From Candidatus Latescibacterota bacterium (GTDB taxonomy: Bacteria; Latescibacterota; UBA2968; UBA8231): 64,000 bases of DNA. The stretch lies in contig CBDAOB010000001.1 in assembly GCA_965197905.1 (NCBI GenBank), positions 32,001 through 96,000 of the forward strand, written 5' to 3'. Positions 917-46,583 of this stretch are shown in pieces. A model generated the notes under the pieces. That model worked only from the letters and a program-made list of their open reading frames with translations. It did no database searches and had not been told where the DNA came from. The position numbers were made by a program, and so were the translations under genes. Positions within the stretch are counted from its first letter, which is position 1, and every line of letters begins with the position of its first letter.

Positions 917-1486
917 ATGAAGACTGATATTACTTTTCGGGCCCTATTGCTGTTCGCGCTTGGGATTATCCCCAACACCGCGGCGCCCAGCAGCCAGGAT
1001 CCTGCCCCCAGCCCCCAATCCTCCAGTGACGGCGCGATTCTGCCTCAGGCGGCGCAGGATATCGAAAACATCTGCGCTCTTCTGGAGATGCCCTCGCTGG
1101 CCATGCAGAAAACCAACACCCCCAGAGTCTCGGTGACCACACAGGGAGGCGCCGTCTTGTACAATCCGTATGTCCTGACCAACGCGGCTTACTGGGGTGG
1201 CCCATGGGCGCACATAGGATTGCTGGCGCGGGAAGTAGGTCGACTCGCGGCCCCACAGACCAGCTGCCTGCAAGGCGATGGCGAGGCACTTACGGAGAAC
1301 CAAAAAGCGGACTTCGTTGCCGGGTTTGTTCTTGGCCGCATGGGGGCCTCGCTGGAGGAGGCTCAGCAAGCCGTGGAAGCCGCCACCCCTCCGGGTGCGA
1401 ATCGGTCCGTTCGTGCCGAGCAACTGCTGGCGGTCGAGCGGGGTTGGCAAAGGGGACAGTCTGAAAGGATGAGAGCGCCGGGTTAA
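917..1486 (+). CDS. hypothetical exported protein
   Basis: Signal-peptide-like N-terminus; LAREVG...ADFVAG recalls a degenerate HExxH/ExxAD metallopeptidase-like fold; start may be 884. Confidence 0.5.
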   Translation: MKTDITFRALLLFALGIIPNTAAPSSQDPAPSPQSSSDGAILPQAAQDIENICALLEMPSLAMQKTNTPRVSVTTQGGAVLYNPYVLTNAAYWGGPWAHIGLLAREVGRLAAPQTSCLQGDGEALTENQKADFVAGFVLGRMGASLEEAQQAVEAATPPGANRSVRAEQLLAVERGWQRGQSERMRAPG

Positions 1487-3358: not shown

Positions 3359-3431
3359 CGGCGGGGCCTCCGGAAATAAATCGCACTGCCATTGAGGCAA
3401 CGGCAGTGCGACATTTCTTGGATGGGCTTTT

Positions 3432-26852: not shown

Positions 26853-27109
26853 TCGTCTTCCCCATTCCGCGCACTCTGGTCTACCGTTGCCTTGTAGATG
26901 CTGTAGAACCCCGACGCGATACCCAGCAGTATCCCGAGTATCAGAAAAAGGGGTGTGGTGGATAGCCATTCATCGATCCACAATCCGCCGAAGAGTCCGA
27001 TGGCGATAGCGGCCGCGAACTGGAATCCGACGTTGATGAAAGGTCCGGCTTTGGCGTAGGATCGCAGCAGCTTGCGGCTGCCTGATTCGGAATCGTCGTT
27101 CAAGGTCAC
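26849..27109 (-). CDS. atpZ: AtpZ/AtpI-family protein
   Basis: G.Q.A......F.G.W.D.W..T.P.F...G..LG...GF; GTGA-coupled to nuoN stop. Confidence 0.8.
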   Translation of the reverse strand: MTLNDDSESGSRKLLRSYAKAGPFINVGFQFAAAIAIGLFGGLWIDEWLSTTPLFLILGILLGIASGFYSIYKATVDQSARNGEDE

Positions 27110-28551
27110 ATCACCGAAACAACCGACGAACGGACAATACCGATCAATATGTCTGGGAATAGTCCCAGCGCAAGGGTGCTCGTCGCCGTCAGCAGCAGAA
27201 CAGCCATCGGTTCCGGCGAAATCCGGACTTCCAATGGCGCCGGCGCGGCCGGACGCATGTAGACGTCGACCACGAGGCGGCAGGAGACATAGGCAGAAAA
27301 CAAGGTTGTCAGCGCCGCGACCGCCACCAGCACGAATTGGCCGGCGTCTGCCGCTGCTCCCATCAGCAGAAAGCGACTTGCAAACCCGGCCGACGGAGGC
27401 AGACCCGCCAGATTGAGCAATAGGAGGGCGAAAATCAGCGCGATTGCGGGATGCCGATGAGCTAACCCCGCGTAGTCTCCAATCTCGGTATCGTCTTCGG
27501 CGGGACGACGGCACATCACCAGCAGAGAGTAACATCCCGCCGCCGCCAGAGCGCTCACGCAGATTTGAAACACTGCGCCGACCACTCCATCGGGATTGGC
27601 CGCCGCTATCCCCATCAATGCGAATCCACCTTGAGCGAGGAAGGCATACGCTAGCAAGCGTTTGAGGTTGCGCTGGTTCATAGCGAGAAGATATCCACCT
27701 ATCATGGTTGCGATGGCGAGGACGACGATCGCCGGAACCCATCGATCCGACAGCTGCTCGAAGCCGTAGAGAAAGAATCGCATGAGCACCGCCAGCGCGG
27801 CCGCGCCCGGAGCTACCGAAATGAAGCCTGCTACCGGCGCCGAGACACCGTGGCGCACATCGGGCGCCCACATGTGAAACGGCAGCACCGCGGTTTTGAC
27901 GCAGAGGCCTACGAGCAGGAATGCCAGGCCGCTGAGGAGCAGTGGATCGCCGGTGCCGCTATTCAATAGATGCACGGTCAATTCCCTTAGCCCGGTGGAA
28001 CCTACGGCGCCGTAGACCAGGCTGCCGCCGTAGAGGATTATGCCACTTCCCAACGCTCCCATAACGTAGAACTTCGCCGCGGATTCCACTGCGTGTTCCG
28101 GCCTCGCGGCGTATACGCTCAATACGCACAGGCTCAACGTCGTCAGCTCCAACCCCACATAAACTAGCACGAGGTCGGTCGCAGCCACCGATACCATTGT
28201 GCCGAGACCGGCGATCAAAAGCAAAGGGTAAAATTCGCTGCAGACGTCGCGCGGCAGATACTGCAACGCCAGCAGCACCGTCAGCACGGTGATACCCAGC
28301 AAGAGTACGTGGAAGAATGATGAGAACGCGTCGCGTGCATACATCCCCCCAAACGCCTCGGCGTTGACTTCCTGGTTCCATTCCATGAGCTCCAGGCAGA
28401 GGGCGATCAGGCCGACACAGAGACAGATATATCCGATTCCGCGGCTGGATCGGCGCGGCCAAAAGACCGCATCGAGCAGGAAAATCAAAATGGCGGCAGC
28501 GCCGACGACGATCTCTGGATAGAGGGCGGACCAATCTGCGGCCAAGCTCAT
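27106..28551 (-). CDS. nuoN: NuoN-like antiporter subunit (divergent)
   Basis: YVGLEL, ESAAKF...GA..SG..LYG, K....PFHMWAPDV, NLKRLLAY. Confidence 0.88.
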   Translation of the reverse strand: MSLAADWSALYPEIVVGAAAILIFLLDAVFWPRRSSRGIGYICLCVGLIALCLELMEWNQEVNAEAFGGMYARDAFSSFFHVLLLGITVLTVLLALQYLPRDVCSEFYPLLLIAGLGTMVSVAATDLVLVYVGLELTTLSLCVLSVYAARPEHAVESAAKFYVMGALGSGIILYGGSLVYGAVGSTGLRELTVHLLNSGTGDPLLLSGLAFLLVGLCVKTAVLPFHMWAPDVRHGVSAPVAGFISVAPGAAALAVLMRFFLYGFEQLSDRWVPAIVVLAIATMIGGYLLAMNQRNLKRLLAYAFLAQGGFALMGIAAANPDGVVGAVFQICVSALAAAGCYSLLVMCRRPAEDDTEIGDYAGLAHRHPAIALIFALLLLNLAGLPPSAGFASRFLLMGAAADAGQFVLVAVAALTTLFSAYVSCRLVVDVYMRPAAPAPLEVRISPEPMAVLLLTATSTLALGLFPDILIGIVRSSVVSVM

Positions 28552-30056
28552 GGCGTTCCCCCTTGCGGAGCTTTCACGGTGGTTTTGTGCCCCGGATCCG
28601 CGTGAGCCAGCACCTGTTCGATCGAGTGCGCCATCTTGTCGTGGATAGCCTGGGGACTCAACCCGATCCATAAGATCCCCAGGAACAAGGGAACCAGAAG
28701 GATTACTTCGCGGGGGCGCAGATCGTCACCGGGTGCAGGCGAAGTCCCGGCGCCGAACCCCAGACGCTGATAACGGCGCAGCAAGCTGGCAGCTAGAAAC
28801 AGCGATCCGATAACGGCGCCAATCGCGTAACCCAGATTTCGTTCCAGAGCGCCCAGGATCACGGAGATCTGGCTTACGAAAACGTTCAACCCCGGGATCC
28901 CGATCGCGGCCAGCATGATGAGGAGAAGGGCCGCACAGGTTTTCGGGTGGCTCCTGGCCAGCCCCCGCTCATCCTCCAGTCCCCTCCCTCGCAGAATTCC
29001 GGCCACTGCGAACAATCCCGCCATTACCAGACCCCGGTTGATCATGTGAGCCACCCCACCACCGACGCCGGCCACCGTCAGGGTTGAAAACCCCAGAACG
29101 ATCAAACCCACCTGGCTCACGGTCACATACGCCAGCAGACGCGGTAACTCCGCTTCGACGAGGGCGAGCAGACTGCCGTAGAGAATCGCACTCACCGCCA
29201 GCAGCAAGACATATTCGTCCACCCGGTGCAGGGCCTCAGTGAACAAGGGAACGCAAAACCTTACGAATCCGTAGATCCCCAGATTCAGCCAGATGCCCGT
29301 GACGACGATCGAGCCGGCGGAGCTGGCGTGTCTATGCAGATCCGCCAGCCAACTGTGGAACGGGAACAAGGCGGCCTTGAAGGCGAAACCAAAAAACATG
29401 GCTGCCAGGAGCCAGAGCTCGGCATCGGTTGACAGGGAGAGCTGGCTCAGGCGCGAAAACTCGAAACTCCGGGGCCCTTCCAGATCCGCTTGTAGCACGC
29501 CCAGATACACGATGGCACCGAGAATGAGGGCGCTTCCGGCCACATTCGTCAAAGCGAACTTCACCGCGGCATGGATTCGGCCCTCGCCACCCCACACGCC
29601 GACGAGGAGAAAAATTGGCAGCAAGGTGATTTCGAGGCTGATGTAGAACATGGTCAAGTCCAATGCCACGAACGCGGCAGCAGCTCCACCCGTTGCTGCC
29701 AGCAAGGTGGTCGAGAACTCCTTTACTCGGACCCGTACTTCGTTCCAGCTCGCCAGCTGGGCGATAGGCAGAAGCAGCGCCGCCAGCAAGACGAGAAGCA
29801 GGCTGATGCCATCCAGACCCACATGGTACTCGATCCCCAATTCCTGGATCCAGGTGTGGCGGTACTCCATTTGGGGTCCGTAGATGGCGTCGTCGAATAA
29901 TGCGTAGCAGACCGCGGCGATTGCGGTCTCCACCAGTCCGATTCCCAGGGACACGCCGCGGATCAAATCTTCCTTACCGCGGGGAAGCGCCATAACGAGA
30001 ACGGCGCCGGCCAGAGGCACCAGGATCAGCAGCGTAGGCAGATGATTCACATTCAT
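28548..30056 (-). CDS. nuoM: NuoM-like antiporter subunit (divergent)
   Basis: YHVGLDGIS, GVWGG..R..AA.KF, K..LFPFHSWL, YGF.RF. Confidence 0.88.
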   Translation of the reverse strand: MNVNHLPTLLILVPLAGAVLVMALPRGKEDLIRGVSLGIGLVETAIAAVCYALFDDAIYGPQMEYRHTWIQELGIEYHVGLDGISLLLVLLAALLLPIAQLASWNEVRVRVKEFSTTLLAATGGAAAAFVALDLTMFYISLEITLLPIFLLVGVWGGEGRIHAAVKFALTNVAGSALILGAIVYLGVLQADLEGPRSFEFSRLSQLSLSTDAELWLLAAMFFGFAFKAALFPFHSWLADLHRHASSAGSIVVTGIWLNLGIYGFVRFCVPLFTEALHRVDEYVLLLAVSAILYGSLLALVEAELPRLLAYVTVSQVGLIVLGFSTLTVAGVGGGVAHMINRGLVMAGLFAVAGILRGRGLEDERGLARSHPKTCAALLLIMLAAIGIPGLNVFVSQISVILGALERNLGYAIGAVIGSLFLAASLLRRYQRLGFGAGTSPAPGDDLRPREVILLVPLFLGILWIGLSPQAIHDKMAHSIEQVLAHADPGHKTTVKAPQGGTP

Positions 30057-30057
30057 A

Positions 30058-31959
30058 TCAAAATGCAACGAAGTAGAAGAGCGTGGCTACCAATCCCGCA
30101 GCGGCGACCGTGGCATACAATCCGACCCTACCGGTTTGGGTCGCGCAGAGAACCCAACCGATACCGCGGACAAACATCGCGCTGCCCCACACGCAACCGA
30201 GATCCAGGACAACCGTATCGACGGCGTCTCGCAAGAAACCCGCAATCCAGCGGAGAGGGCGAAGGACTACCTGCTGACATAGCCATTCGACGTAGAAGTG
30301 ATTTCGCGCCCATAGCTGCCAGAAACTCTCCTTCTCGGCCGGGGCTGTCTTGAACCCGAACAGGGTCCAGGCGATCCCTAGGCCGACCACAGCCGCCATG
30401 GCAGGCACGAACCAGTAGATCGTTTGCGGAAAATCGGTGGCGTAAGGCACGCTGACGGATAGCTCGGGCAGGATCATGCGGTAGAGTATCTGCGGCTCAA
30501 TCAGAAACGGAATCAACCCGGCTCCAAGGGTCGTAACCGACAGGACGATCAACGCCGCGGCGGCAGCGTGTGGCAGCGGTTTTGGCCGCTCGTCTTGAAC
30601 GGTTGCGGCGGGGCGGGCGTAGATGAGCAACACCACGCGAAAGCCGTAGAGGGCGGTCAGCAGCAAAGCAACGCAACCGACGACCCAGAGATGCAACATG
30701 TCCACCGAATAGATCGCCGCCATGGCCGCTCCCGTACTCCAGAAGGCGGCAGACGGGGGCAGTCCGACAAGACCTGTTATTCCGATGACGAAAGCCCAGA
30801 ACGGGACGAGGAGACGACCTGAACGCTGTGGCAGATTCCACACATCCAGATTGTGATTCGAGCGTGCCGAAAGCACTGAGGTACCGAGGAAAAGCAGGGC
30901 CTTTAGGCAAGCGTGAAGACAGACGTAAAGAATGGCAACCGCATGGGCACCCATGCCGACGACGGCAAGGACCAGACCCAGCTGGCTGGAGCTCGAGAAG
31001 GCCAGCACCTTCTTCAGATCGCGCTCTCCCAAGGCGACGAGGCCGGAGAAAATGGCCGTTGTCAGCCCGACTCCTATGAGAATCCATCGCAGGGACGGTG
31101 ACTGCTCGAGCAACACGCCTGCGCGCACCAGCGTATATACGGCGGCGATGCTCATGAAGCCGAAATGCACCAACGCGTTCGTCGAGGCCGGCGCCCTGGT
31201 CGCACTCGAAAGCCAGACGTGAAACGGAAACTGGGCGCTACGGCAAAATACGGAGACGAGCAGTAGGATCCCGGCCATCTGGGTCCAGCTGGAAGAGCCA
31301 GCTGTTTCCAACCCCTTGTATTCCAGCGTTCCCACTGCCGATGCCAGCATCAGGATGCAGATGAGAAGGGCCAGATCTCCCGCTCTGTCCACCACCCAGA
31401 AACCAAACGCGCCTCCTTCGGCGGAGGCACTGTGGGACTCGCTCAGAATGTCACCGGATTGAATCTCCGGTTCGGTTCGCTCGCGACCCCAGGTTGTCAG
31501 GAAATAACCGCAGATACCCAGCAACACCCATCCCCCATACAGCAAACCTAGATTGTTGGCGATCAGCAGCAGGGTCACCGCCGTCGAGGCCAGGCAGACC
31601 AGCGCGAAGAATCGGGCGCCGCTGCCATCGCGCTTGCGGGTGCCCACGGAAAACAGCTGGATAGCAAAAGCCAGGGTGGTCGTGGCAACCAGCAGTATCG
31701 CCGTGAGCCCGTCTACCAATACGCCGCAGGAAAAGGAAACATCACCGAGGCGCAGCCAAACAAACAGGATCTCATCGACCGTTTGCCCCTGGGACACTTG
31801 TGCAAAAACCAGCAAGGCGGCGCTCCACGACAAAAACAAAGCCGCGGTGGCAACCCACGCCGGCGCCTGCCCGCGGCCAAAGAGGATGCAGAGCGCGGCT
31901 CCTGAAGCCGGCGCCAACAGGACCAGGAGGGCGCCAATGAGGGTATCGGCAATCACCAT
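30058..31959 (-). CDS. nuoL: NuoL-like antiporter subunit (divergent)
   Basis: RSAQFPFHVWL, DLKKVLAFS..SQLG, HA..KALLFL, C-terminal QTG.V..YA. Confidence 0.88.
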   Translation of the reverse strand: MVIADTLIGALLVLLAPASGAALCILFGRGQAPAWVATAALFLSWSAALLVFAQVSQGQTVDEILFVWLRLGDVSFSCGVLVDGLTAILLVATTTLAFAIQLFSVGTRKRDGSGARFFALVCLASTAVTLLLIANNLGLLYGGWVLLGICGYFLTTWGRERTEPEIQSGDILSESHSASAEGGAFGFWVVDRAGDLALLICILMLASAVGTLEYKGLETAGSSSWTQMAGILLLVSVFCRSAQFPFHVWLSSATRAPASTNALVHFGFMSIAAVYTLVRAGVLLEQSPSLRWILIGVGLTTAIFSGLVALGERDLKKVLAFSSSSQLGLVLAVVGMGAHAVAILYVCLHACLKALLFLGTSVLSARSNHNLDVWNLPQRSGRLLVPFWAFVIGITGLVGLPPSAAFWSTGAAMAAIYSVDMLHLWVVGCVALLLTALYGFRVVLLIYARPAATVQDERPKPLPHAAAAALIVLSVTTLGAGLIPFLIEPQILYRMILPELSVSVPYATDFPQTIYWFVPAMAAVVGLGIAWTLFGFKTAPAEKESFWQLWARNHFYVEWLCQQVVLRPLRWIAGFLRDAVDTVVLDLGCVWGSAMFVRGIGWVLCATQTGRVGLYATVAAAGLVATLFYFVAF

Positions 31960-32255
31960 TTCAAACTGTCCACGGCCGAGAGATCGGTGTGGCCCCGCTG
32001 GCGGTGGAGGCCAATGACGATGGCCAGTCCCGCACCCACCTGAAGGGCGGCAAACACCAGCGCGAAAAGGGCGAAGAGCTCGCCGTTCAACTCGCCGTGC
32101 AGTCGGGCGAATCCGGCGATATTCAGCGCCGCGGCGTTGAGCATCAGCCCCGACGAAAGGACTACGGCGAGGGCGTTTCTGCGCATGAGCATGCCCGCCA
32201 ATCCGATGCAGAACAGGGCGGCGCTGACGATGAGGATGGGGAACGGCTGCATCAC
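31953..32255 (-). CDS. nuoK: NuoK-like subunit (divergent)
   Basis: LFCIG..G...RRN, LMLNAA.LN, GLAIVI...R, LKW end. Confidence 0.85.
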   Translation of the reverse strand: MMQPFPILIVSAALFCIGLAGMLMRRNALAVVLSSGLMLNAAALNIAGFARLHGELNGELFALFALVFAALQVGAGLAIVIGLHRQRGHTDLSAVDSLKW

Positions 32256-32767
32256 GAGGTGTGTTGCCCTCCGGGGGCGCTGCCGGCGGCCGAGTCGGGA
32301 CTCGTCAAGACCGACGTGCCCACAGCCACCACCAGAAACGCGAACCCGGTCAAAAGCAGTGGCAACAGGAAGTCGCCGACGAGAGACCCCGCCAGACTAC
32401 CGGTCTGCTCCATCTCGGAGATTGAACCACCCGCTGGCAGAATCAAGCAGAGCAGGGAGAACAAACAGGCACAAAGGACGGCAGCGACCATGGTCCCGAC
32501 GCGAACCCGTCTGACCGCGACGGCGGACTTGAGGTTGGTGGAAACCCCCACCACGAGACAGAGGAGAGCTGAGCCGGATAACCCTATAAGGACTTCGCTG
32601 GCCCCCAACAAAGGAGTGCCGAGCTGCAGGAAAAGAGCGGCGATGCCAAGTGTAGTCGCGCCAAACAAGAAGGCGGCGCGCACGGCACTCCTTGCGGAGA
32701 CGGTGAGAATCGCCATGATCAGACAAAAAACGGCAACCAGACCGAAGGCGGCAGCTTCCAGTGTCAT
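32252..32767 (-). CDS. nuoJ: NuoJ-like subunit (divergent)
   Basis: Hydrophobic 5-TM pattern between nuoH and nuoK; ATGA-coupled on both sides. Confidence 0.75.
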   Translation of the reverse strand: MTLEAAAFGLVAVFCLIMAILTVSARSAVRAAFLFGATTLGIAALFLQLGTPLLGASEVLIGLSGSALLCLVVGVSTNLKSAVAVRRVRVGTMVAAVLCACLFSLLCLILPAGGSISEMEQTGSLAGSLVGDFLLPLLLTGFAFLVVAVGTSVLTSPDSAAGSAPGGQHTS

Positions 32768-34534
32768 CTGTACACCAGCATATACGCAGCAATAGGAATA
32801 TTGAGGGCGGTCAGAGGGATGGCCACCCTCCAAGCCCAGCACACGAGCTGGTCCATGGAGGGGCGCGGTACTACGAGGGTAGGGTCGAGAACTGGCGCGC
32901 CAGCCTTAGGGTTCGGTGGGTTCCCCATGGCTTTCGCCATAGCCCTCAGTCCGACTCCCATCGCTACGTTTCCAGTTCCCGCCGCCTCAAACCGGACGTG
33001 CGGATCTCCCGCATCCGGCTTCCCGACGAACGTCACATCCAGGCACACGCCACAAGGACTTCACCTGGTAGTCAAGCTGCTTCCGATGCATACTAGTCTT
33101 ACTGCTGGAGGCAATAGGCTCACGCCACTCTCCAACCCTCTGCACTTCCGCAGCATGTCCGAAGTCAGGCCCCTTCCCTCCACCGGAGTTACCCGGCTTC
33201 CTCGGTACTACGCGCCTGTCCGCCACCTCATCCAGCCCAGTCTGGCCCTCGCGGGTTACCGGTTGGAGGCACTCGCTGCTTCCACCGGATGAGGCTTCCC
33301 GTGTTGCGCCACATCTCCTCTTACACACATGCTGTCGCCACTACCCCGGCGGAACAGCTGGGTGCGCTTGTCGCTCGACTTCCCCAGCTGCAGCGGCCTT
33401 CCCTGGTTTACGGGCAGGTCGGCTTCCGCATTACACTTTTCGAGGCCTGCTCAGCGTTTACTCACGTTACGGCCTGTGTGCTCGCCAAGTCGCCCAAGGC
33501 GACCCTCTACACCGGAGGCTTCAGCGGCTTCGTCGCCTCCACCACTGCTCCGATTGCTACCGGCTGGAGCGACCCTTGCCGGGTGGGATTCGCACCCACT
33601 GAAGATGTGCGCCTTAGCACGGCGCACCGTAACCATTGTGTGAACAACATGAACAGCATCGATTTCGCCAACAGCAGAGCGACCCCAAGGAGCGCCCACC
33701 CCCCCCTCCTTCCCCTTCCGCGACGAACGGCAAGTGCCAGCCGCCAAGGTAGAGCGTCGCCACCAGCAGGCTCGCGGCCAGCAATCGCAAGCGCCCGGCA
33801 AGGGCCAGCAAACCCAGCGGGAGTCCGCTGTAGGAGGCTGCGTAACCGGCCTCCATTTCCTGAGACCGGCCCGAATCGAGTGGTAGGCGGTCGGCGAACG
33901 CGAAGGTTGCCGCCACCATTCCGAGGAAACCAAGTGGCTGGACCAGCAGATTCCACCGTGGCAGAAGCCCTGGAGTTGCCGCTTGGGAGCGAACGATCTC
34001 CGCCAGTTGCATGGATCCGCCGGCCAATGCCACGCCAGCTATCGCCAATCCTGCAGCGATACCAAAACTCACGACCTGCGACGCCATATTCAGCGAAGCG
34101 ATCTGGGCATAACCGTGACCGGAACCCCGGCCCGCCGCGATCAACCCGAAAGCGGCAAGCGGGATTAGCGCCACGACAACCATTGTACCGGCGCCGGCGG
34201 ATGCCAGCTGCAGTGACATGGAGAGTCCTCCGATCTCAACATCTTTCCCGAATGGAATCAAGCCAAGCAGAATCAGCGGCGGCAGCAGCGAAACGAGGGG
34301 CGCCAGGAAGAATATTCGTCGGTCACCAGCCTCCGGAGCCACACACTCCTTGCACATCAGCTTCAGGCCATCGGCGTAGGTTTGCAGCAGTCCAACGCCC
34401 CTAGCCCCGTCGTACCGTCCAGTGGCGACCCGGGTCCAACCCCTTTCAAGGAGAATGGAGAGCGGAATGAGGATACCGAAGGTCGCCCCCAGCAGCACTG
34501 CCGCCTTGATCACCAGAATGGGAATCTCTTGCAT
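32764..34534 (-). CDS. nuoH: NuoH-like subunit split by a group II intron (exon 1 34534..33628, exon 2 32878..32764) and by a frameshift at G8 (33699-33706)
   Basis: GLLQ..ADGLKL..KE, WN...QPLGF, LYLGGW; spliced C-terminus WLRLVVPRPSMDQLVCWAWRVAIPL matches NuoH WxRxxxPRxRxDQLxxxxWKxxxP. Confidence 0.85.
32879..33627 (-). mobile_element. ORF-less group II intron (749 nt)
   Basis: 5' GTGCG; domain V AAGCCGGATGCGGGAGATCCGCACGTCCGGTTT (33021-32989); 3' end CTCGACCCTAC; EBS1-like CGTAA complementary to exon end TTACG; no RT ORF. Confidence 0.93.
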
Positions 34535-34579
34535 GACTAACGTTCGCTCGTGTCCTCTACGAGAAATAGGTTGACCGTC

Positions 34580-34685
34580 GTCTGCTGCCGAGGCGCGGGG
34601 ATTGCAAGGCGCCTGAGCGAGCCTGTACTGGTGGAGTACGGCGAGTGAAGGCAACGCCGCAAGCCCCGATGGATCGGCGGCAGAC
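34580..34685. repeat. palindromic element, copy 2
   Basis: IR GTCTGCTGCCGA / TCGGCGGCAGAC; same internal loops as 24694..24777; begins at nuoG stop codon. Confidence 0.8.
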
Positions 34686-36343
34686 TACTTGCGATGGTCG
34701 TCCACATGCAGAAACCCCCATTGCTGTAAGCGATCTGACCAGCCGGCCCCGTAGGCCTGCCCAACTACTCTCTCGTCCTGTTCGCGACTCTGCAGCGACT
34801 CGTAGGTGAGTTCGCTGAATATGCCGCCGACCTCTTGACTCATTTCCACCAGTATCTCCTCTGGTTGCTGGAACTGCCGCTGCATCGCGGTCGCGGCCAG
34901 CCGTTGCAACACCTGCCATTCGGGCAGCACGCCGGGTGGCCCGGCGATGCAGCCCCGTATCCGCTGCACTCTACCGTCGAAATTGGTAAAGGTGCCTTCC
35001 TTTTCGAAAGGCGTCAGTCCGGGAACCACCAGATGCGCGGACTCGGTCAGCGACGAAGGGATGGTCGCGTGGACGACCAGCAACTCTAACTCGTCGAAGG
35101 TGTAGCCACCCGTCGACATCGATTCCACCAGCGCATCCGAGCCGACGACATAGGCGCGGGTGATGGTGCGGTCGACGATACCCGCCATCAAGCGCTGTGT
35201 GGATTCCAGCTCAATGTCGAGTGCACTGGCGATCTCCTTTACTCCGCGCCCGTTGGGTGTTCTGTCCTCACGGATTGTGAACCCCGACTTGAAGGCGATT
35301 TCCCGGCCCTTTCTACCTTCTTCGAAACAGACCAGTTGCGCGCCCCAGACATCCGTGGCCAGCTTCAGCAGCAGGTACGCCTCCTCGTTGGTCAGTGTGC
35401 CATTCAGCACCACCGCCAAACCGCCCTCCGCACCCAACAGGTGACGGTCGGCAAACGCCAGTGCCTGTTCCCACGTCGCCTGCTCTTGGTCGCCGCCCTC
35501 CCGGATACGCGGTTCCGCGAGCCGATCGTGGCGCTGGATTTCCCGCCAGCCGTAGCGGCCCTCGTCGCACATCCAATAGCCGTTTACCGCCAGGTTGGCT
35601 CGAGGTTTGAGCCGCTGGATGTCGCCGCTGTAGACATCGACCCTGATATTGCAGCCGGAACTGCAACCGGGGCAGATCGAGTTTATACCCTGAAGTGTCC
35701 AAGGAGGTGGATCGAATCGAGACTCGGGTTCGACTAGAGCGCCCACGGGGCAGATGTCAACGTTGTTCCCGGACATACCGTCTTGCAGTTCTCTTCCAGG
35801 AAACAGGCTGACCACGGTTTCCGCTCCCCGAAATGCCGGACTGAGCTCGCCTCCCCCCGAGATCTCATCCGTGAACCGGGCACAGCGATTACAGCCAATG
35901 CAACGGCTGGAATAATACGACACCTGCGGACCAAAGCGTACCGGCGGCGCGTTCCTTTTCGGCCATTCCGCATCGCTCCATTTTGGACCATGGGAGTCGG
36001 CATGATCCTGCAGCTCGCATTCGCCGGCTTTGGAGCAGGTGGAACAGTCGAGAGCGTGTTTCCGAAGCAGAAACTCCAATACATCCGATCTCGCTTTCAG
36101 CACCGCCTCGGAGTTCGTGGAAACAACTAGTCCGTCCACCACCGGCTGGTTGCAGGTAGGCGCCAGCACGGTGGAACCGCCGTCGCCGAACTCGGCCACG
36201 CACAGCCTGCAGCTGGCGGGACTGGAGAGTGCCGGATGGAAACAGAAGTGTGGAATGAACTCACCGGCTTGCAAGGCGGCGAGCAGTAGGTTGCCGCCCT
36301 GGCGCACCTCTATCGTTTCGCCGTTCAGCTGGATTGTTGGCAT
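34685..36343 (-). CDS. nuoG: NuoG-like Fe-S subunit (short form)
   Basis: CFH...SCRLC...TC; HALDCSTC...GEC; CIGCNRC...ICPVGAL; CPGCSSGC...C. Confidence 0.9.
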   Translation of the reverse strand: MPTIQLNGETIEVRQGGNLLLAALQAGEFIPHFCFHPALSSPASCRLCVAEFGDGGSTVLAPTCNQPVVDGLVVSTNSEAVLKARSDVLEFLLRKHALDCSTCSKAGECELQDHADSHGPKWSDAEWPKRNAPPVRFGPQVSYYSSRCIGCNRCARFTDEISGGGELSPAFRGAETVVSLFPGRELQDGMSGNNVDICPVGALVEPESRFDPPPWTLQGINSICPGCSSGCNIRVDVYSGDIQRLKPRANLAVNGYWMCDEGRYGWREIQRHDRLAEPRIREGGDQEQATWEQALAFADRHLLGAEGGLAVVLNGTLTNEEAYLLLKLATDVWGAQLVCFEEGRKGREIAFKSGFTIREDRTPNGRGVKEIASALDIELESTQRLMAGIVDRTITRAYVVGSDALVESMSTGGYTFDELELLVVHATIPSSLTESAHLVVPGLTPFEKEGTFTNFDGRVQRIRGCIAGPPGVLPEWQVLQRLAATAMQRQFQQPEEILVEMSQEVGGIFSELTYESLQSREQDERVVGQAYGAGWSDRLQQWGFLHVDDHRK

Positions 36344-36397
36344 GGTTTCCGATGGTCGCAATATGTCAAAACGTTGACGCTGGTGTTGAGCATCGTG

Positions 36398-37740
36398 TTA
36401 GAAGCGGACGCTGACCGCTTCGGGGACCTTGATCGCCAGATCTTTTTCGACGGGACAGCCGCCAGAATCGATATGCTGTCTGAATTCGCTCTCGAACGCG
36501 CTTACAAACCCTGCAGCGGCCAGGCGAAGGCGGCTCCCAGGCCACACAGCATCGGCGATGCCGAAACCATCAGCGGCCCCATTTTTTCACCTAACTCGAA
36601 CAACCTGCCGAGATCTCCTTCCGTACCTTCCCCCGATTCGACCCGGGCGATAATGTCGCGCATCCACGGCATCCCCTCGCGGCACGGGGTGCACTCGCCG
36701 CAGGATTGCCCGGCGTAGAATTCGGCTAGATTGAGGGCGGCATCTACCATACAGGTCGTCTCGTCCATGACAATGATCCCGCCAGTGCCGAAAACACCGC
36801 CGAACTCTCCTCCTCCCGGGTGCAGCCACGCTGCCGGATCCAGAGGCACATCCAGCTGGTCGGCGTGTAGAACCGGCGACCGACCTCCCCCCGGAAGCAC
36901 GGCCTTCAGCTGATGCCCCGAGCGCACGCCACCCCCCATCTCGTAGATGACTTCACGCAAGGTCGAAGCCCCCAGCGGCAGTTCGTATAGGCCCGGCCTG
37001 CTCACGTGTCCGCTCAGGCAAAAAACGAGGGTGCCGGGATACCCCTCGCTACCGATGCCTCGGAACCAGTCGGCGCCGTTGTTCACGATGTGAGGCAGAT
37101 ATGCCAGGGTACCGATATTGGCGACCTCCGCCGGCTTGCCGAAGAGCTCCGGGACGACCGCGGTGCCGCGGGGTTCCGCCCTGAAACCTTCGATAGAGCG
37201 CAGGAGAGCCGTCGCTTCGGTCTCGATATAGGCGTCCCCGCCTGGATGTACATACACCTCGAGAGCATAACCCGTCTCCCGAACGTTGGCGCCCAGCCAG
37301 CCGTGCTCGCGCGCCGACGCTATAGCCCGCTCCAGCAACGCTCGGCCCCGGCTCATATCGCTACGCAGGCAAACGTAAACGGTCGAGGCGCGCAGAGTGT
37401 ACGCGGCGATGATAATGCCTTCGAGTATCTGATGGGGATTGCGCTCCAGCAGCTTCCGATCGCGGAACGTGCCCGGTTCGCTCTCGTTGCCACCGACACA
37501 GAGAAACTCCACTCTGCCAGCCCGTTTCTGGGCATGGTTTCTCCACCGGGCAGCGACGGGGTACCAGTCGCCGCCCCTGTCCTGCAGACCGGACTGTTCG
37601 ATCAGGTCCAGCACCTCGCCCGGTGGTCGGCGTCGCACAGCGATCTCCGCGGCGGCGTAACCTCCGTTGGCGACATAGGTGTCCCACAGTTCGATGTCGG
37701 GGACGTCGATGTCGTTCAACAGCACGCGAAACTCAGCCAC
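36398..37740 (-). CDS. nuoF: NuoF-like subunit with degenerate FMN motifs and a frameshift near 36509
   Basis: ESEPGTF.DR, SGHV.RPG.YE, SCGECTPCREG...CGLG; C-terminus FVSAFESEFRQHIDSGGCP continues in another frame to TAA at 36398. Confidence 0.85.
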
Positions 37741-38224
37741 CGGACTCTCCCTCTAGCGAAAGCTTCAATCTCTCAAGGATCTGATCGATGCGTTCCAGCG
37801 TGAGACTCTGATGCAACTCGCCATCGACCAGTATGACCGGGCCCATGCCGCAACAGGCAAGGCAATCAACTTCCTCCACGGCTACAAGCGAGTCGCTGAC
37901 GTCGATCTCCGCCAACCTCTCTTTCAGGTACTCAACCACCCGCGTGGCCCCCATCAACCGGCAGGAGAGCGTACCGCAGACACGAATCAGGTGTGCTGGC
38001 GGCGGTTGGAGACGAAAAGCGGGATAGAAGGTGGCTACTCCATAGACCCGGGCGGGAGAAAGATTCAGCTTGCCCGCAACGAACTCGATGGCCTCTTCCG
38101 AGAGGTAGCCAGCCTCACTCTGAACCAGATGCAACACCGGCAGCAAGGCCCCGGATGGCTGGGGATAACGGCGGGTGAGATCGTCGTACTCCACCACCGC
38201 TTTTGCCGAAAGCTTGAAGCTCAT
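37733..38224 (-). CDS. nuoE: NuoE 2Fe-2S subunit
   Basis: ALLPVLH..Q, VATFY, VC..LSC...G, CLACC..GP. Confidence 0.92.
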   Translation of the reverse strand: MSFKLSAKAVVEYDDLTRRYPQPSGALLPVLHLVQSEAGYLSEEAIEFVAGKLNLSPARVYGVATFYPAFRLQPPPAHLIRVCGTLSCRLMGATRVVEYLKERLAEIDVSDSLVAVEEVDCLACCGMGPVILVDGELHQSLTLERIDQILERLKLSLEGESGG

Positions 38225-39920
38225 CGATCCACCTCTCCGGCTACCACGTTGAGGCTACCCAACACCACCAGCGCCTCGGATAGGGTCATCCCATGAGCGA
38301 CATGTTCAAAGAGCTGATAATTCAGAAACGATGGCGCCCGCACCCGCAAACGGTACGGACGGTCGGAACCGTCGCTGACGATGTAGAATCCCAGCTCACC
38401 GTTGGGCGATTCGGTGGGTAAATAGGAGTCCGCGTCTGGAGGCGGCTGAATTCCGTGTCCTTCCATCCAGAGTTTGAAGTGGTGAATCATGGATGATGCC
38501 TGACTGGAGATCTCACTCCTCTGTGGGCGCCGAGCGTTTGAATTCATCGTCGAGTAGTCGCCGCCGGGAAGATCGCGGAGCGCCTGGCTGACGATGCGGC
38601 AGCTCTGGACGAGCTCTTCGACACGCACCAGATAGCGGTCGTGCACATCGCCGGTTACTCCCACAGGGACGTCGAAATCGAACTCTTCGTAGGCGCTGTA
38701 CGGCTCGTCCTTTCGCAGATCGCAACCGACGCCTGCCGCCCGCGCCACCGGGCCGCTCAACCCCCACGACCTGGCTTCGGCCACACCGATCGTCCCGACC
38801 CACGCGCCCGATCCAACCACACTCCATTGCCGTCCCACAGCGCTCGAAGCTCGGCGACCCCGCGCATCATGTCCGACAGAAATGCCGATACCCTTGCTGA
38901 GAATTCGGGCGGCAGATCGGCGGCGATTCCGCCCACGCGAACGAAGCTTGTCATCCATCGGTTTCCCGCAATGGATTCGTAGATGTCGCACAGCGCTTCC
39001 CGCCGCGTGTCAACAAGCTGGAACAGACCGTGGGCAGCGATTTGCCGGGCCTGAGACCCCAACCAGATGAGATGCTCGCCGATGCGCCCCAGTTCGCTGA
39101 GTATAACCCGGGCATACTGGGCTCTTTCAGGAACATCGACGCCCAGCAAGCGCTCGACGCACAGAACAAAGGCGAGGTTGTTGCAGAACGGCGATTGATA
39201 GTTGATCCGGTCGGTGACAGTTACAAACTGCATGTAGCTCTGATTTTCACCCAGCTTCTCTACGCCCGAATGAACAAATCCAAGATCCAACCCCACCCGA
39301 GATATCATATCCCCTTCCGCTTCCAGGTCGGCGCTCAGATTGCCTGTCATTCCCGGGTGAAGCGGCCCCAGCCGCAGGAGGTTGGAGTCGTCGACACCTT
39401 GTTGGTTCCCGGGCGCCTCCTCGCCGGGGGGCGAAACCCCGACCGGGGCAGAGCCGCACCCGGCGACGGGAAAGTCCTTGCGCAATGGAAATGATTCGAA
39501 ACTGTCGGGAAGCAGGATTCTGCGCATGTCCGGATGACCGCGGAAACGGATGCCAAACATGTCGTAGACCTCGCGCTCGAGCCAGTTCGCCGCAGGCCAC
39601 GAAGAAGCGATGCTTTCCACTTCATCGATATCCGGATCTAGTGGAACCCTGAGGCGAAGCCGGAAACCTGAGATGGACGAACGCAGTTGGTAGACGAGTT
39701 GGAAACGTTTGCCACGGCCCAGGTGGAGTCGGTCCACAGCCGTGAGGTCAACGAGGGTGTCCAACCGATCGCCATCGTGGCCGCTTAAGAATTCCAACAG
39801 AGGTTCCAGATCGGCAACCGAGACGTCCAGCGTCCACTCGCCCCGCAACTCTAGAGGTTGCAGGCGAGCTGCCCCCAGGAACTCCCGCAGGTCTAAGAGG
39901 ATCGGGGTTTCGGTTGCCAT
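38221..39920 (-). CDS. nuoCD: fused NuoCD-like subunit with a frameshift near 38800
   Basis: [30 protein letters not shown] (C); H.G.EK, GP..RA.G...[19 protein letters not shown] (D), split over two frames. Confidence 0.85.
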
Positions 39921-39936
39921 AGCGGACGCAGCCAGC

Positions 39937-40311
39937 CTAGCGAAATCCGCTCTTGCGCCAAGCGTACACAAGACCGGTCCCGACGATGACCATAAAACCG
40001 AGAATCCCGGCTACCGAGTCGTGGCCGCGCTCAAGCAGAGTGCGGAATTCAGCTGCCCAAATCAGCAGGAAGGCCAAAACGCCTGGCAGCATCAAAGTCA
40101 CGAAGACAAATCCGTAATAACGGAAGGGAAATTCACGCGGTCCTCCGAACGCGGGCCGTCCCGATTCGAACCTGGAGGTTGCGGTGCCGGTGGGTTGGTC
40201 CGGCCGCAGTCGCCGTGCAATCATCGAGCAGAAAAATACCCCCGCCAGCGCCATGATTATCAGAATTGGGATGGCGGCGTACTGCTCTATCGTCGGGGGG
40301 TAGGTTGACAC
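39937..40311 (-). CDS. nuoA: NuoA-like subunit (divergent)
   Basis: 3 TM, FESG (for YECG), [12 protein letters not shown]. Confidence 0.8.
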
Positions 40312-40422: not shown

Positions 40423-40665
40423 TCAGACCGTCGTCGCTTCGCTTCTGGTGCTAACTGCCTCACCCGATTGCGACGAGAACTCGTCGTCGTCCGAACACGA
40501 ACCTGGAGGAGCGCCACACTCGCAGAGGGGTTGTCCGAACTCGTCGCTCATGGCACTCAGGCCGCCACAGGACCCTTTGATACGGCGGTTGCTAAAGATC
40601 ACACCGACCGCCATACCGGCAATGACTAAGCCAAATACCAAAAGCGCTGCAACGTACTGTTCCAC
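40423..40665 (-). CDS. nqrM: Na+-NQR maturation factor (DUF539)
   Basis: MAVGVI....IKGSCGGL......CEC......C directly after nqrF. Confidence 0.88.
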
Positions 40666-40677
40666 TAATCCTCTTTC

Positions 40678-41916
40678 TCAGCCGAAGTCGTCGAAACGGA
40701 TCATTTCCTGCTCGACACCGAGGTCGTCGAGCATCTTCATCACCGCCTGCAACATCAGTGGCGGGCCGCACAAATAGTATTCGATATCTTCGGGCGCCGG
40801 GTGTTGCGACAGGTAGTTGTCGAGGACCACCTGGTGAATGAATCCCATGTAGCCAGTCCAGTTGTCTTCGGGCAACGGTTCAGACATGGCAACGTGGAAT
40901 TTGAAATTTGGATATTCCGCTTCGATCTTGCGGAAATGATCCTCGTAGAACAGCTCTTTGCTGGAACGAGCCCCGTACCAGTAGGAAACCTTGCGGTTCG
41001 TGTGTTCGGTATGAAAGAGGTGAAAGATGTGCGATCGCAACGGAGCCATGCCGGCCCCACCTCCGACGTACATCATCTCGCGCTCAGTTTCCTGAATGAA
41101 GAACTCCCCGAATGGACCGGAAATAGTCGCTTTGTCCCCCGGTTTGAGATTGAATACGTAAGAGGAGACGATTCCCGGATTCACATTCATCCACCCTCCC
41201 TTTTCGCGGTCGGGGGGAGGTGTGGCGACGCGAATATTCAACATGACGATGTTGCCTTCGGCCGGGTGGTTCGCCATGGAGTAGGCTCGGACTACGGTTT
41301 CGGGGTTGACCGTCTTCAAATCCCATACCCTGAAGCGGTCCCAGTCATCGTGGAATCTTTCTTCGATGTCGAAACCGCGGAAGTCGCATTCGAACGGCGG
41401 CACCTCAATCTGAATAAACCCTCCCGATTCGAAGTTGAGTATCTCGCCCTCGGGTAGCTTGAGAACCAGCTCTTTTATGAAGGTGGCGACGTTGTTGTTC
41501 GACACCACTTCGCACTCCCACCTCCTCACCGAGAAAACTTCTGCGGGTACGTCTATTTTCATGTCCTGCTTGACGCTGACCTGGCAGGACAGCCGCATCC
41601 CCTCGCGAGCTTCGCCCTTGGTAATGTGCTCCAGCTCGGTAGGCAGTATATCTCCGCCTCCATCGTGCACGTGGACCTTGCATTGGGCGCAGGTGCCTCC
41701 GCCACCACATGCGGACGAAACGAAGATCTGACTGTCGGCCAGTGCGTTCAACAGCTTGCCGCCAGTGGGCACCGAAATGGAGCGGTCCGGATCGTTGTTG
41801 ATAAGGATGTTGATATCGCCGCTGGGTACCAGCCGCGAGCGGGCGACGAGAATCAGCGCCACTAGAAACAACACGACCATGGTGAACATGCCGACGCCGG
41901 CGCCGATCTCAGTCAT
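40678..41916 (-). CDS. nqrF: Na+-NQR subunit F
   Basis: [44 protein letters not shown]. Confidence 0.97.
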
Positions 41917-41965
41917 CTGAACATTCTCTCTCTATCATTCACCCTGAGAAGCTTGCGACAGGACA

Positions 41966-42577
<612 letters not shown>

Positions 42578-42579
42578 AA

Positions 42580-43206
42580 TTAATGCCGATCCTCTTCGAT
42601 CTGCTCCATTTTAAACGACCGTAGCACCCAGATAAACACTCCGATGATGAAGAATGCACTGGGTGGCAGGAGCATCAGTCCATTCGGTGCGTACCACCCT
42701 CCCTCGGCTACGAGTGAAAAAACCTCGACTCCCAGCAGCGTGCCCGAACCGAAGAGCTCGCGAATCACCGCGACCACCAGCAAAATGACACTGTAGCCGA
42801 TGCCGTTACCGATTCCGTCCAACAGGCTCGTTCCCACCCCGTTTTTCATGGCGAACGCCTCGGCTCTACCCATGATGATGCAGTTGGTGATGATGAGACC
42901 GACAAAGACAGACAACTGCTTACTGACATCGAAGGCATACGCCTTCAGAACCTGATCAACAATGATGACCAGAGAGGCAATGACGGTCATCTGCACGATA
43001 ATGCGGATGTTGGTCGGCACGTGCTGTCGAATCAGACTGACTCCCATGTTGGAGAAAGCCAGCACGAAGATAACGGCGAGACACATCACCATCGCCGTCT
43101 CCAGTTTGCTGGTGACAGCCAGTGCCGAGCAGATACCGAGTATCTGTAGAGCGATCGGGTTGTTATTGAAGACGGGGTCGAGCAGGGTCTCTTTGTTCTT
43201 AGCCAT
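42580..43206 (-). CDS. nqrD: Na+-NQR subunit D
   Basis: [31 protein letters not shown]. Confidence 0.96.
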
Positions 43207-43975
43207 GTTTCCGCGCTTTCAACTGTTTGAGGTACGGGCCGAAACCGCTGTCGCCCAGCCAATAGGTCAACATGTTGGTTACACCTCTAGCGGTAATGGT
43301 TGCCCCCGAAATACCATCAACTTGATATCTCGATTCGAAACGCGAAGGATCCGCTTTGCCCTTGATGACGGTAATTCGCAGCTTGCCGCTCTCGTCGAAA
43401 GCGCTCTTGCCGTTCCACAGCGCTTTCCACGCCGGATTGTCCACCTCGCCACCGAGTCCGGGGGTTTCCATGTGTTCGTAGTAAACCAGAGCGCGTATCG
43501 TCGAGAGGTCGCGGGCATCAAGAGTGACGAAACCGTAAAGGGTGGACCAAAGTCCGAGCCCGTGCACTGGCAGAATGATCTTCCGGACCTCGTCGCCCTT
43601 GCGCACGAGATAGACCGAAGCCTGTTTCGCCCGGCGTTTGATATCCCCCAAGTCTTCTTCAGTTGGCACCTGGATGCTCGTCGCCGGATCCTTGGCCGCC
43701 CGGCGCTGATCGTAGGCCTGGGGGTCGATCCCTTCGGCGTAGTGACCGGTCTCCAGCTCGACCACCTTGGTTTCGATAGCCTCAAAAAGCTCGTCGATGC
43801 TCTTCTCGCCTTCCTCGAGCCCGGCAGCCATAAGGATATTGCGTTTTTTGTCGAGGCTCTTGTTGACCGTCTGAATCGGCCGCAAGTAGACAGCCGCACT
43901 CGAGACCAGCACCGAGCAAACGACACACAAAAGGAACGCCACGAAGAAGGTCTTGCCGATGGTTTCCTTAGCCAC
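43199..43975 (-). CDS. nqrC: Na+-NQR subunit C
   Basis: [25 protein letters not shown] (FMN-Thr). Confidence 0.96.
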
Positions 43976-43998
43976 GATACACTTCCACTAGGTTGTTC

Positions 43999-45209
43999 TC
44001 ATGCTGCCGTTCGCAGCAACCGGCGTTTGATGTTCGCCTGAACCGCGAAATGGTCCAGGACCGGGGCAAATACATTTCCAAAGAGGATGGCGAGCATCAC
44101 ACCTTCCGGGAACGCCGGATTCACCACCCGAATCAGCACCGTCATGATTCCGATCAGCAAGCCGTACGCCCACTTGCCTGCGTTGGTCATGGTGGCAGAG
44201 ACCGGATCGGTGGCCATAAAGACCGTGCCGAAGGCGAATCCGCCAAGGAGGAGGTGCCACATCGGATCGACACCAAACATCGGATTGGTCGAGCTGCCGA
44301 TCGCATGCAGCAACGCCGCCAGTCCGACTGTCCCCACGGTCATGCTCAGCATGATACGCCAGGACCCAATGCCGGTGGCAATGAGAATAAAAGCGCCGAT
44401 GAGACATGCCAGGACCGAGGTTTCACCCATCGATCCGGGAATGACCCCCAGAAACGCTTCGATGGGGCTCATGCTGCTAAGGTGGGCGGCGAGGCCGTCC
44501 GCCGGCACCAGACCCAGTGGAGTCGCGTGTGTATAACCGTCCACCGCCACCCAGATCGCGTCACCCGTAATCTCGGCCGGATACGCGAAATAGAGGGAAG
44601 CGCGCGAGGTGAGCGCGGGATTCAGAAAATTCTTGCCGGTTCCGCCAAACACTTCCTTGCCGATAATGACACCGAAGGCAATGCCGATCGCCACCTGCCA
44701 GAGCGGGATGGTCGGCGGCAACGTCAGCGGGAAGAGCAAACCGGTAACAAGGAATCCCTCGTTGATATCGTGGCCGCGTATCAAGGAAAAGATCGCTTCG
44801 ATGGTACCGCCGACGATCATACATACCAGGTAGACCGGCAGAAAATAGAGGGCGCCGTGGAAGATGTTCGAGACGAAACTCCCCGGGCTGTATGGCACCT
44901 CCATTGCGTCCATTACGACGCCACGCCAGCCGCCCGCCGACTGCAGGCCCATCTGCTCCATCGCGATGTGGACCTGATAACCGGTATTCCACATCGCCAT
45001 GAAAACACACGGAATGAGCGCCACAACCACGGTGATCATCATGCGCTTGAGATCGAGCCCGTCGCGTACGTGGGAAGCCCCACTGGTGACCTGCCCTGGC
45101 GTAAACAGAAAAGTGTCTGTGGCTTCGAACGCCGGATACAGCTTTTCCAGCTTGCCCCCCTTGGTGAAGTGGGGCTCGGCCGCATCTAGCATGTCGCGCA
45201 GGAACTTCA

Positions 45210-45210
<1 letters not shown>
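43999..45210 (-). CDS. nqrB: Na+-NQR subunit B
   Basis: [38 protein letters not shown]. Confidence 0.96.

Positions 45211-46583
<1,373 letters not shown>

Follow-up and report, generated by a model that had tools for sequence, protein, structure and literature searches.

The question raised by this locus is what becomes of a respiratory complex when the residues associated with its catalysis are replaced and the ligands of its metal centres are kept. The window analysed here is a stretch of 64,000 nucleotides (nt) from contig CBDAOB010000001.1 of a Candidatus Latescibacterota bacterium, and it contains, on the minus strand at 27106-40311, an operon for complex I (NDH-1, the proton-pumping NADH:quinone oxidoreductase built from the Nuo subunits). 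Pfam searches give the gene order as A-CD-E-F-G-H-J-K-L-M-N. Our preferred reading, which we hold at slightly better than even confidence, is that the operon would specify a non-pumping iron-sulphur (Fe-S) complex unable to oxidise NADH, kept in the family for a secondary role and recently inactivated in this genome. On the evidence of its residues, neither binding of flavin mononucleotide (FMN) nor oxidation of NADH is to be expected of the complex, nor the reduction of quinone at the usual site or the movement of protons.

This is the sole nuo operon of a 6.69-Mb genome, which carries only one set of NuoA, NuoD, NuoH, NuoJ and NuoK genes. nuoB and nuoI lie outside the operon, and a single NuoB-like and a single NuoI-like gene stand alone on another contig. 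With these included, the genome encodes homologs of 14 of the 14 core complex I subunits.

To evaluate the flavin and NADH site we aligned NuoF residue by residue to Nqo1 from Thermus (2fug_1) and NuoF from M. smegmatis (8e9g_F). In these alignments the glycine loop GLRGRGGAGFPTG is replaced by GLQDRGGDWYPVA, so that the core GRGGAGF reads DRGGDWY, and GAGAYICGEETAL is replaced by GGDAYIETEATAL, where the core YICGEE reads YIETEA. Alignment to solved NuoF/Nqo1 chains further shows NADESEPG changed to GGNESEPG, YVRGEY to CLRSDM, and NNVETL to ANIGTL. All four FMN/NADH motifs (glycine loop, NADE, CGEE and NNVET) are therefore altered, as the original prediction, made from the letters of this stretch, had claimed. 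The replaced residues include what we take to be nearly every published FMN and NADH contact. To quantify these losses across the complex we defined universal columns, for each subunit, as alignment positions with at least 93% conservation among 30-45 canonical sequences drawn from a range of phyla. The window NuoF keeps 65 of the 87 such columns obtained from 45 canonical NuoF sequences; the 22 that are lost are concentrated in the FMN/NADH loops, and for this reason the changes are not scattered noise. The Pfam FMN domain scores 97 bits in this protein, against 150 bits in near-canonical kin and 156 bits in a paralog from the same genome.

That paralog serves as a control. It is part of a separate NuoE/NuoF/NuoG-like set on contig C5 of the genome (G000, about 1220463-1223200), with a NuoF-like frame of 615 codons and all canonical FMN/NADH motifs. 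Sets of this type are present in nearly all relatives, and the C5 genes probably encode an enzyme of the HoxF/HydB/Nfn type that is soluble and NAD-linked. We considered whether they might complement the operon in trans and rejected this: no link between the two was found, and the set looks like a separate enzyme because relatives without a NuoH match also have such a paralog.

The NuoF fold itself is predicted to be kept. An AlphaFold2 model of the window protein has a mean predicted local distance difference test score of 91.6 and template-modelling scores of 0.90 to 8e9h_F and 3i9v_1, and its lowest confidence falls in the altered loops (residues ~161-200). A confidently predicted fold and a full complement of core subunits would both suit an ordinary NADH:quinone oxidoreductase with unusual residues, whose broken reading frames, described below, would be sequencing errors. 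We regard this as very improbable: almost every published FMN/NADH contact is replaced, and the membrane arm has fared no better, as set out next.

NuoD was aligned to NuoCD2 from Aquifex and NuoCD from E. coli. The motif HPGTHG/HPSAHG has become HPGMTG, in which the second His of HPxxHG is Thr, and ALDLGA/IQDVGA has become ARQIAA, in which Gln replaces the Asp (LD to RQ). The Tyr of TDRxxY is retained (TDRINY). These three residues are presumably those that contact the quinone headgroup, the role assigned to them in the structural literature; the earlier claim that the His and its partner Asp were lost and the Tyr kept was thus borne out. What that analysis missed is that the membrane arm is as degenerate as the peripheral arm. 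Both conserved Glu of NuoK are gone (Glu36 to Gly and Glu72 to Gln, E. coli numbering, from the alignment to 3rko_K). At universal columns, Pro and Val stand in place of the conserved Asp and Glu of NuoA, five conserved Glu columns are lost from NuoH, and NuoL has replacements at a conserved Glu, at three Lys and at His columns. In alignments to solved ND4/NuoM chains, Asn stands in place of a Lys of NuoM, Gln in place of a Glu, and Gln and Arg in place of two His; in NuoN one conserved Lys has become Gly. We take these charged positions to be the published proton-path residues. Given that the E-channel and the antiporter-type subunits have lost conserved charged residues as well, the complex is not simply a rewired pump. 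For the ordinary enzyme raised above, the missing NuoK Glu pair and the missing Lys and Glu of NuoM are further points against.

The Fe-S ligands present a different picture. All four ligand Cys of NuoE are kept, as are the CxxCxxC motif and the fourth Cys of cluster N3 in NuoF. NuoG has the 11 Cys and one His that bind N1b, N4 and N5 (12/12 universal columns), together with the N7 Cys at residues 230, 233, 237 and 265. The ligands of N1a, N3, N1b, N4, N5 and N7, reported intact in the original prediction, were all found present, and in total 20 of the 20 universal Fe-S ligand columns of NuoE, NuoF and NuoG are kept in the window. The unlinked genes follow suit: the NuoB-like gene retains four Cys (the tandem Cys-Cys and two more) and the NuoI-like gene two CxxCxxCxxxC motifs. 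The eight NuoI Cys are kept in six of six genomes, and NuoB of one relative, G014, is without one Cys of the tandem pair.

We next asked how far the pattern extends; names of relatives are their submitters' labels. Eight other family genomes (G001, G002, G006, G014, G015, G019, G007 and G021) carry a degenerate operon of the same layout, and a further one is found in RS822, a metagenome-assembled genome (MAG) of the contig collection. Two sister families also have an operon with this layout, in three genomes (G030, G028 and G040). A maximum-likelihood tree of NuoF places the family sequences on the same side of a split supported at 100/100. Family members keep 63-69 of 87 universal columns in NuoF, 53-71 of 78 in NuoCD, 25-35 of 52 in NuoH, 33-46 of 86 in NuoL, 35-49 of 76 in NuoM, 23-27 of 36 in NuoN, 7-9 of 12 in NuoK, 4-6 of 13 in NuoA, 27-30 of 36 in NuoB, 11-13 of 13 in NuoE and 40-43 of 46 in NuoG. 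In every subunit, 93-100% of the universal columns are kept by the near-canonical kin (G030, G040, G028, and L034 and L035, two MAGs labelled Candidatus Latescibacterota). The motifs were lost in steps: GRGGAWF, NADESEPG, YICGEE and HPATHG are found in the sister families and GGxW, NANE, YIAGEE and ENxGT in most of the family, and the window's genus has reached GGNE and YIETEA.

Through these losses the Fe-S ligands are spared. None of the 20 NuoE, NuoF and NuoG ligand columns is lost in the window, G001, G014, G015, G019, G007 or G021, which make up seven of the eight genomes scored for the three subunits. Each genome has lost 22-47 of 147 universal columns, and the hypergeometric probability of sparing the ligands by chance is 0.0002-0.03 per genome, for genomes that are related and so not independent. 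G006 has a contig without NuoG and keeps its eight NuoE and NuoF ligand columns (p = 0.14). Among the 60 best-scoring protein clusters at 90% identity, 28 carry degenerate FMN motifs, and the N3 ligands are kept in all 28. Conservation across orthologues, proposed with the original prediction as a check on it, is thus seen in these 28 clusters and in eight related genomes.

The preferential retention of Fe-S ligands over other universally conserved residues is what would be expected of a working electron-transfer chain with a swapped input (ferredoxin or another flavoprotein, perhaps the neighbouring NQR) and a swapped output, an acceptor away from the quinone site, without pumping. Complex I forms that use ferredoxin or flavodoxin in place of NADH exist. 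NuoE, NuoG and NuoB are the best-kept subunits, and even in the most diverged members (G019, G007 and G021), whose membrane arm is hardly picked up by Pfam, the peripheral arm is clearly recognisable. We nevertheless judge such a chain unlikely. In none of the loci read did we find, within the operon or next to it, a gene for a candidate donor or acceptor. Ligand retention is no proof of electron flow, because Fe-S ligands are also needed for folding; electron transfer alone would leave selection on seven membrane subunits unexplained; and nuoD and nuoF are broken in this genome. The same evidence divides the earlier description of the peripheral arm as a flavin-less Fe-S wire: the degenerate FMN/NADH pocket and the Fe-S ligands kept under selection uphold it, and the alternative donor, ligand or sensor partner that it envisaged was not found.

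If the complex is neither an NADH dehydrogenase nor a rewired chain, it might have been functionless since NQR arrived and be a relic eroding slowly throughout the family, of which the broken frames in the window would be the latest step. In favour of such decay, catalytic residues are gone in every module, and 11 of 24 family genomes, including four that are assembled in one or two contigs, gave no NuoH match, so that the family can evidently do without complex I. To evaluate selection directly we estimated omega, the ratio of non-synonymous to synonymous substitution rates, against the sister species G002. Values were 0.078 for the C-terminal part of nuoD, 0.077 for nuoK, 0.11 for nuoN, 0.116 for nuoF, 0.13 for nuoG, 0.155 for nuoM, 0.195 for the N-terminal part of nuoCD, 0.20 for nuoL, 0.245 for nuoH, 0.29 for nuoE, 0.32 for nuoA and 0.40 for nuoJ, and for the unlinked nuoB and nuoI 0.116 and 0.20. 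For comparison, the nqr genes gave 0.02-0.11, most other genes of the window 0.02-0.17, and atpH 0.98. Two further pairs, in both of which the synonymous distance is saturated, gave 0.08-0.34 (G007 against G021) and 0.13-0.24 (G014 against the RS822 MAG). The nuo genes have thus been under purifying selection in three parts of the family, more weakly than nqr; their omega, 2-10 times that of the neighbouring nqr genes, is a further point for decay.

A neutral relic would not be expected to give omega far under 1 in three separate genome pairs, nor to leave its frames open. The frames are open in G002, G001, G014, G015, G006, G019, G007 and G021, with one possible break, in nuoH of the RS822 MAG, and the eleven genes remain open in relatives at protein identities of 30-60%. 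The sparing of the ligand columns, and the occurrence of 28 distinct clusters with a degenerate NuoF and every N3 ligand, likewise argue against plain decay, which we consider quite improbable, somewhat more so than the rewired chain. Given that the pattern is shared by these clusters and eight related genomes and that the genes are under purifying selection, a flavin-less but Fe-S-loaded complex is a selected state in the family and not an accident of the window sequence.

The operon in the window itself is a separate matter. We compared it base by base with that of G002, at 87-89% DNA identity. A missing nucleotide near 38799 breaks nuoCD in two, where G002 has one open frame of 613 codons from stop to stop; the deletion of another single nucleotide, at 36507, costs nuoF its last ~35 codons; and nuoH has gained 2 nt in a G run at 33699-33700, beside a 749-nt group II intron. 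None of the three frame changes is compensated relative to G002. The frameshifts, the absence of nuoB and nuoI and the intron had all been missed in the original prediction.

One of the three frameshifts sits in a run of eight G, which would suit sequencing error and with it the ordinary enzyme. Contigs of two DNA runs from different studies (X1 and X3) cover 30 of 30 bins of the operon, and no indel is listed for either at the three sites. X3 contigs span 33699-33700 and 36507 without a gap, and 38799 is covered by a different X3 contig, which extends 207 nt or more to each side of 38936. Sequencing error was therefore rejected as the main explanation, since contigs from another study show the same sequence at all three sites. 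In both DNA runs the depth rises about six-fold at 39516-39962, with loose ends at 39549-39581; this likely reflects short cross-matches of other organisms' contigs to a conserved stretch of NuoC.

The intron is missing from G002 and from the X3 contig, in which 32878 joins 33631. The X3 nuoG has a 294-nt in-frame deletion (35090-35383) and a 1-nt insertion after 35429, both downstream of all Fe-S domains and neither in the window, and a protein 96% identical to the window NuoF is full length (448 residues). Strains of the species thus carry different lesions. Such variation between strains, as would mark a pseudogene, also fits the slow erosion considered above. With G001 as outgroup, lineage-specific residue changes number 118 on the window branch and 143 on that of G002 (p = 0.14); as the window branch is not accelerated, the lesions are recent. 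Given that three genes are frameshifted, among them two of the peripheral arm, and that no contig of the two DNA runs speaks against this, the window copy is probably non-functional, and most likely a very young pseudo-operon.

The intron is itself an actively spreading element that needs a maturase in trans. Contigs C2-C5 carry 12 or more other near-full-length copies at 99-100% identity, and its depth in DNA and RNA contigs is 50-100 times that of flanking genes. In RNA contigs from two runs the intron is found at high depth, and the operon as only three short exact pieces at depth 2.6-3.6 (34664-34825 and 34828-35037 in nuoG, 37747-37917 in nuoE).

The setting of the operon suggests what may have replaced it. 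Within a same-strand block of ~27 kb (19851-46559) the window holds nqrABCDEFM, the nuo operon and F-type ATP synthase genes: nqrABCDEF, for the NADH:quinone oxidoreductase that translocates Na+ (Na+-NQR), and an nqrM-like open reading frame (ORF) lie directly upstream of nuo, and the ATP synthase genes directly downstream. The order nqr-nuo-atp is found again in G002 and G019. In G019, G007 and G021 the peripheral-arm genes directly follow nqrF, then come L, M and N, found only by clade-specific profiles, and then atpI; NuoH and NuoA were not detected there even with clade-built profiles, a result in which absence and divergence are indistinguishable. Of the eight carriers of the degenerate operon, seven have nqr adjoining it, and the eighth is on short contigs.

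A NqrA model matches 21 of 24 family genomes, 12 of 12 genomes of a second family and none of four genomes of the two near-canonical families. A NuoH model matches 13 of the 24, and its scores separate canonical (380-430 bits) from degenerate sequences (110-276 bits). G030, G040 and G028 each have two NuoH genes of canonical score and two or three NuoB genes, which suggests that they hold two complex I operons. Further low-scoring NuoH homologs (110-150 bits) occur at G028:C28:4560-7868, G008:C301 and G022:C38, and one in G028 adjoins a very degenerate NuoB-like gene keeping 23 of 36 universal columns; these are hints of other degenerate complex I-like sets in the class.

These data allow us to propose how the complex may have changed. 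NADH oxidation in these bacteria likely proceeds via Na+-NQR. In the preferred reading, an Fe-S complex kept for a secondary role, the loss of catalytic residues would have followed the availability of Na+-NQR, which would have taken over NADH:quinone oxidoreduction from complex I. Selection would then have retained an Fe-S-loaded, membrane-anchored assembly with a role that might be structural, or lie in redox buffering, in sensing, or in low-rate electron transfer from another donor, and in the window's species that role would now be in the course of being given up. More tentatively, and short of an even chance, at least seven genera of one uncultured family, close to MAGs labelled Latescibacterota, may have converted a 14-subunit complex I into a pseudo-enzyme that acts as scaffold, redox buffer or sensor, its function tied to the flanking Na+-NQR and ATP synthase operons. 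Such an assembly would be maintained by selection with all ligands of its Fe-S chain in place, and would have neither a flavin site nor a canonical quinone site nor a path for protons.

Several observations weigh against this reading of the family and of the window. Our functional statements rest on sequence, and residue loss predicts, and does not prove, loss of function. The otherwise intact sister G002 (locus L016) has lost one ligand column: its first N4 Cys is Arg (SSRRIGCNRC, against SSRCIGCNRC in the window), which fits badly with strict selection on an Fe-S wire and would fit decay. Outside the window's genus some binding of nucleotide or flavin is possible, because GEET of the NADH site and the flavin-loop Tyr survive in most family members there. 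Counts across genomes reflect few events, the genomes being kin, and the association with NQR, a correlation seen within related genomes, represents one or two evolutionary events. As to the window, X3 may be the only independent support for the frameshifts, because the run with the best match to the stretch may come from the sample that yielded the window. The frameshifted genes might still yield usable fragments, and the nuoF truncation takes only the C-terminal tail beyond the last N3 Cys. The RNA pieces show neither transcription nor splicing, and could be carried-over DNA.

The features of the locus are collected in the table below. Elsewhere in the window, a hybrid histidine kinase gene at 1486-3460 (PAS domains, the end of HATPase_c, and a receiver domain) is without ~517 nt present in G002, which include the HisKA region, and its frame is shifted; it looks like another young pseudogene.

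Features of the nqr-nuo locus, with positions in the window and the evidence for each assignment
Feature	Position	Strand	Evidence
nqrA-nqrF (Na+-NQR operon)	40678..46559	-	Pfam NQRA_N/NQRA_2nd, NQR2_RnfD_RnfE, FMN_bind, Rnf-Nqr (twice), Fer2 + FAD_binding_6 + NAD_binding_1
nqrM-like small ORF, between nqrF and nuoA	40423..40665	-	Pfam PF04400 NqrM, 27.2 bits (cut-off 22)
nuoA, degenerate	39937..40311	-	Pfam Oxidored_q4, 44.7 bits; 6/13 universal columns kept
nuoC-nuoD fusion, N-terminal part to frameshift, with altered quinone-site His and Asp	38800..39971	-	Pfam Complex1_30kDa and start of Complex1_49kDa; PDB alignments
nuoD C-terminal part, different frame	38221..38799	-	Pfam Complex1_49kDa, profile positions 83-271
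nuoE, N1a ligands kept	37733..38224	-	Pfam 2Fe-2S_thioredx, 139.7 bits; 12/13 universal columns
nuoF, degenerate FMN/NADH pocket, intact N3 ligands, frameshift-truncated	36502..37740	-	Pfam; structure alignments
nuoF 3' end remnant, out of frame	36398..36506	-	DNA alignment to G002, where it encodes the last ~35 residues
nuoG, short form, 558 residues, N1b/N4/N5/N7 ligands kept	34685..36361	-	Pfam Fer2_4, NADH-G_4Fe-4S_3, Fer4_Nqo3, Molybdop_Fe4S4
nuoH 5' exon, with +2 frameshift in G run 33699-33700	33628..34654	-	Pfam NADHdh, matching only 5-247 of the 298 profile positions
ORF-less group II intron in nuoH, sense orientation, 749 nt	32879..33627	-	Rfam RF02003, 106.8 bits
nuoJ	32252..32842	-	Pfam Oxidored_q3, 42.6 bits
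nuoK, both conserved Glu replaced	31953..32255	-	Alignment to E. coli NuoK 3rko_K; universal columns
nuoL, degenerate	30058..31959	-	46/86 universal columns kept
nuoM, degenerate	28548..30068	-	49/76 universal columns kept; alignments to solved ND4/NuoM chains
nuoN, degenerate	27106..28671	-	27/36 universal columns kept

Complex I is among the most conserved of bioenergetic enzymes, and near-invariance is the usual assumption for its flavin, quinone and proton-path residues. The literature searched yielded no account of such losses in a complex I. If the preferred reading is true, the family would offer a natural experiment that separates the parts of complex I needed for folding and assembly from those needed for catalysis, and a rare candidate for a multi-subunit pseudo-enzyme. 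For the window's own genome the outcome is more ordinary, a freshly broken operon. There is also a practical consequence. Automatic annotation names such genes "NADH-quinone oxidoreductase subunit F", and because of this metabolic reconstructions would credit these bacteria with a proton-pumping NADH dehydrogenase that is very probably absent.

Compared with canonical NDH-1 (Nqo1-14 of Thermus, NuoA-N of E. coli), the complex described here is alike in its 14 core homologs, its full set of Fe-S ligands and its NuoF fold. As in E. coli and Aquifex, nuoC and nuoD are fused, and the gene order is canonical except for nuoB and nuoI. It differs in the replacement of the FMN/NADH pocket, the quinone-site His and Asp and the proton-path residues, in the unlinked nuoB and nuoI, in a short NuoG, and, in this genome, in three frameshifted genes and an intron-interrupted nuoH. 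The closest counterpart is the sister-family operon (G030, G040, G028; L034, L035), which shares the order A-CD-E-F-G-H-J-K-L-M-N without B and I, the short NuoG and the unusual Trp of the glycine loop (GRGGAWF), at ~50% identity in NuoF. Unlike the window, the sister families keep HPATHG, ALDIGA, NADESEPG and YICGEE and appear to hold a second complex I operon.

A parallel outside complex I is the "deranged" cytochrome bc1 of Acetobacteraceae, which has lost conserved catalytic or ligand residues and is kept in genomes (Degli Esposti et al. 2023, PMC10715153). For that complex a structural role, stabilising complex I, is proposed in the same article (PMC10715153). As far as this account goes, the two cases are alike in that a respiratory complex is retained despite the loss of conserved residues. 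They would differ in what was lost: metal ligands in the three-gene bc1, and here, in a complex of 14 subunits that keeps its metal ligands, the sites for substrates and the paths for ions.

Complex I can also do without its NADH-oxidising part. The 11-subunit NDH-1 of cyanobacteria and chloroplasts has no NuoE, NuoF or NuoG, and in the Campylobacter type NuoE and NuoF are replaced by unrelated proteins; both keep the quinone site and the pump residues. Forms of complex I without the NADH-oxidising module are dealt with in PMC3144371. The complex of the window would resemble these in having no electron entry from NADH via a NuoF-bound FMN. It departs from both in that residues of the quinone site and of the pump are gone as well, and from the Campylobacter type in that its NuoE and NuoF are homologous proteins. 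It differs from the 11-subunit NDH-1 and the Ehr/Mbx-type complexes in that NuoE, NuoF and NuoG are all present, and in operon order.

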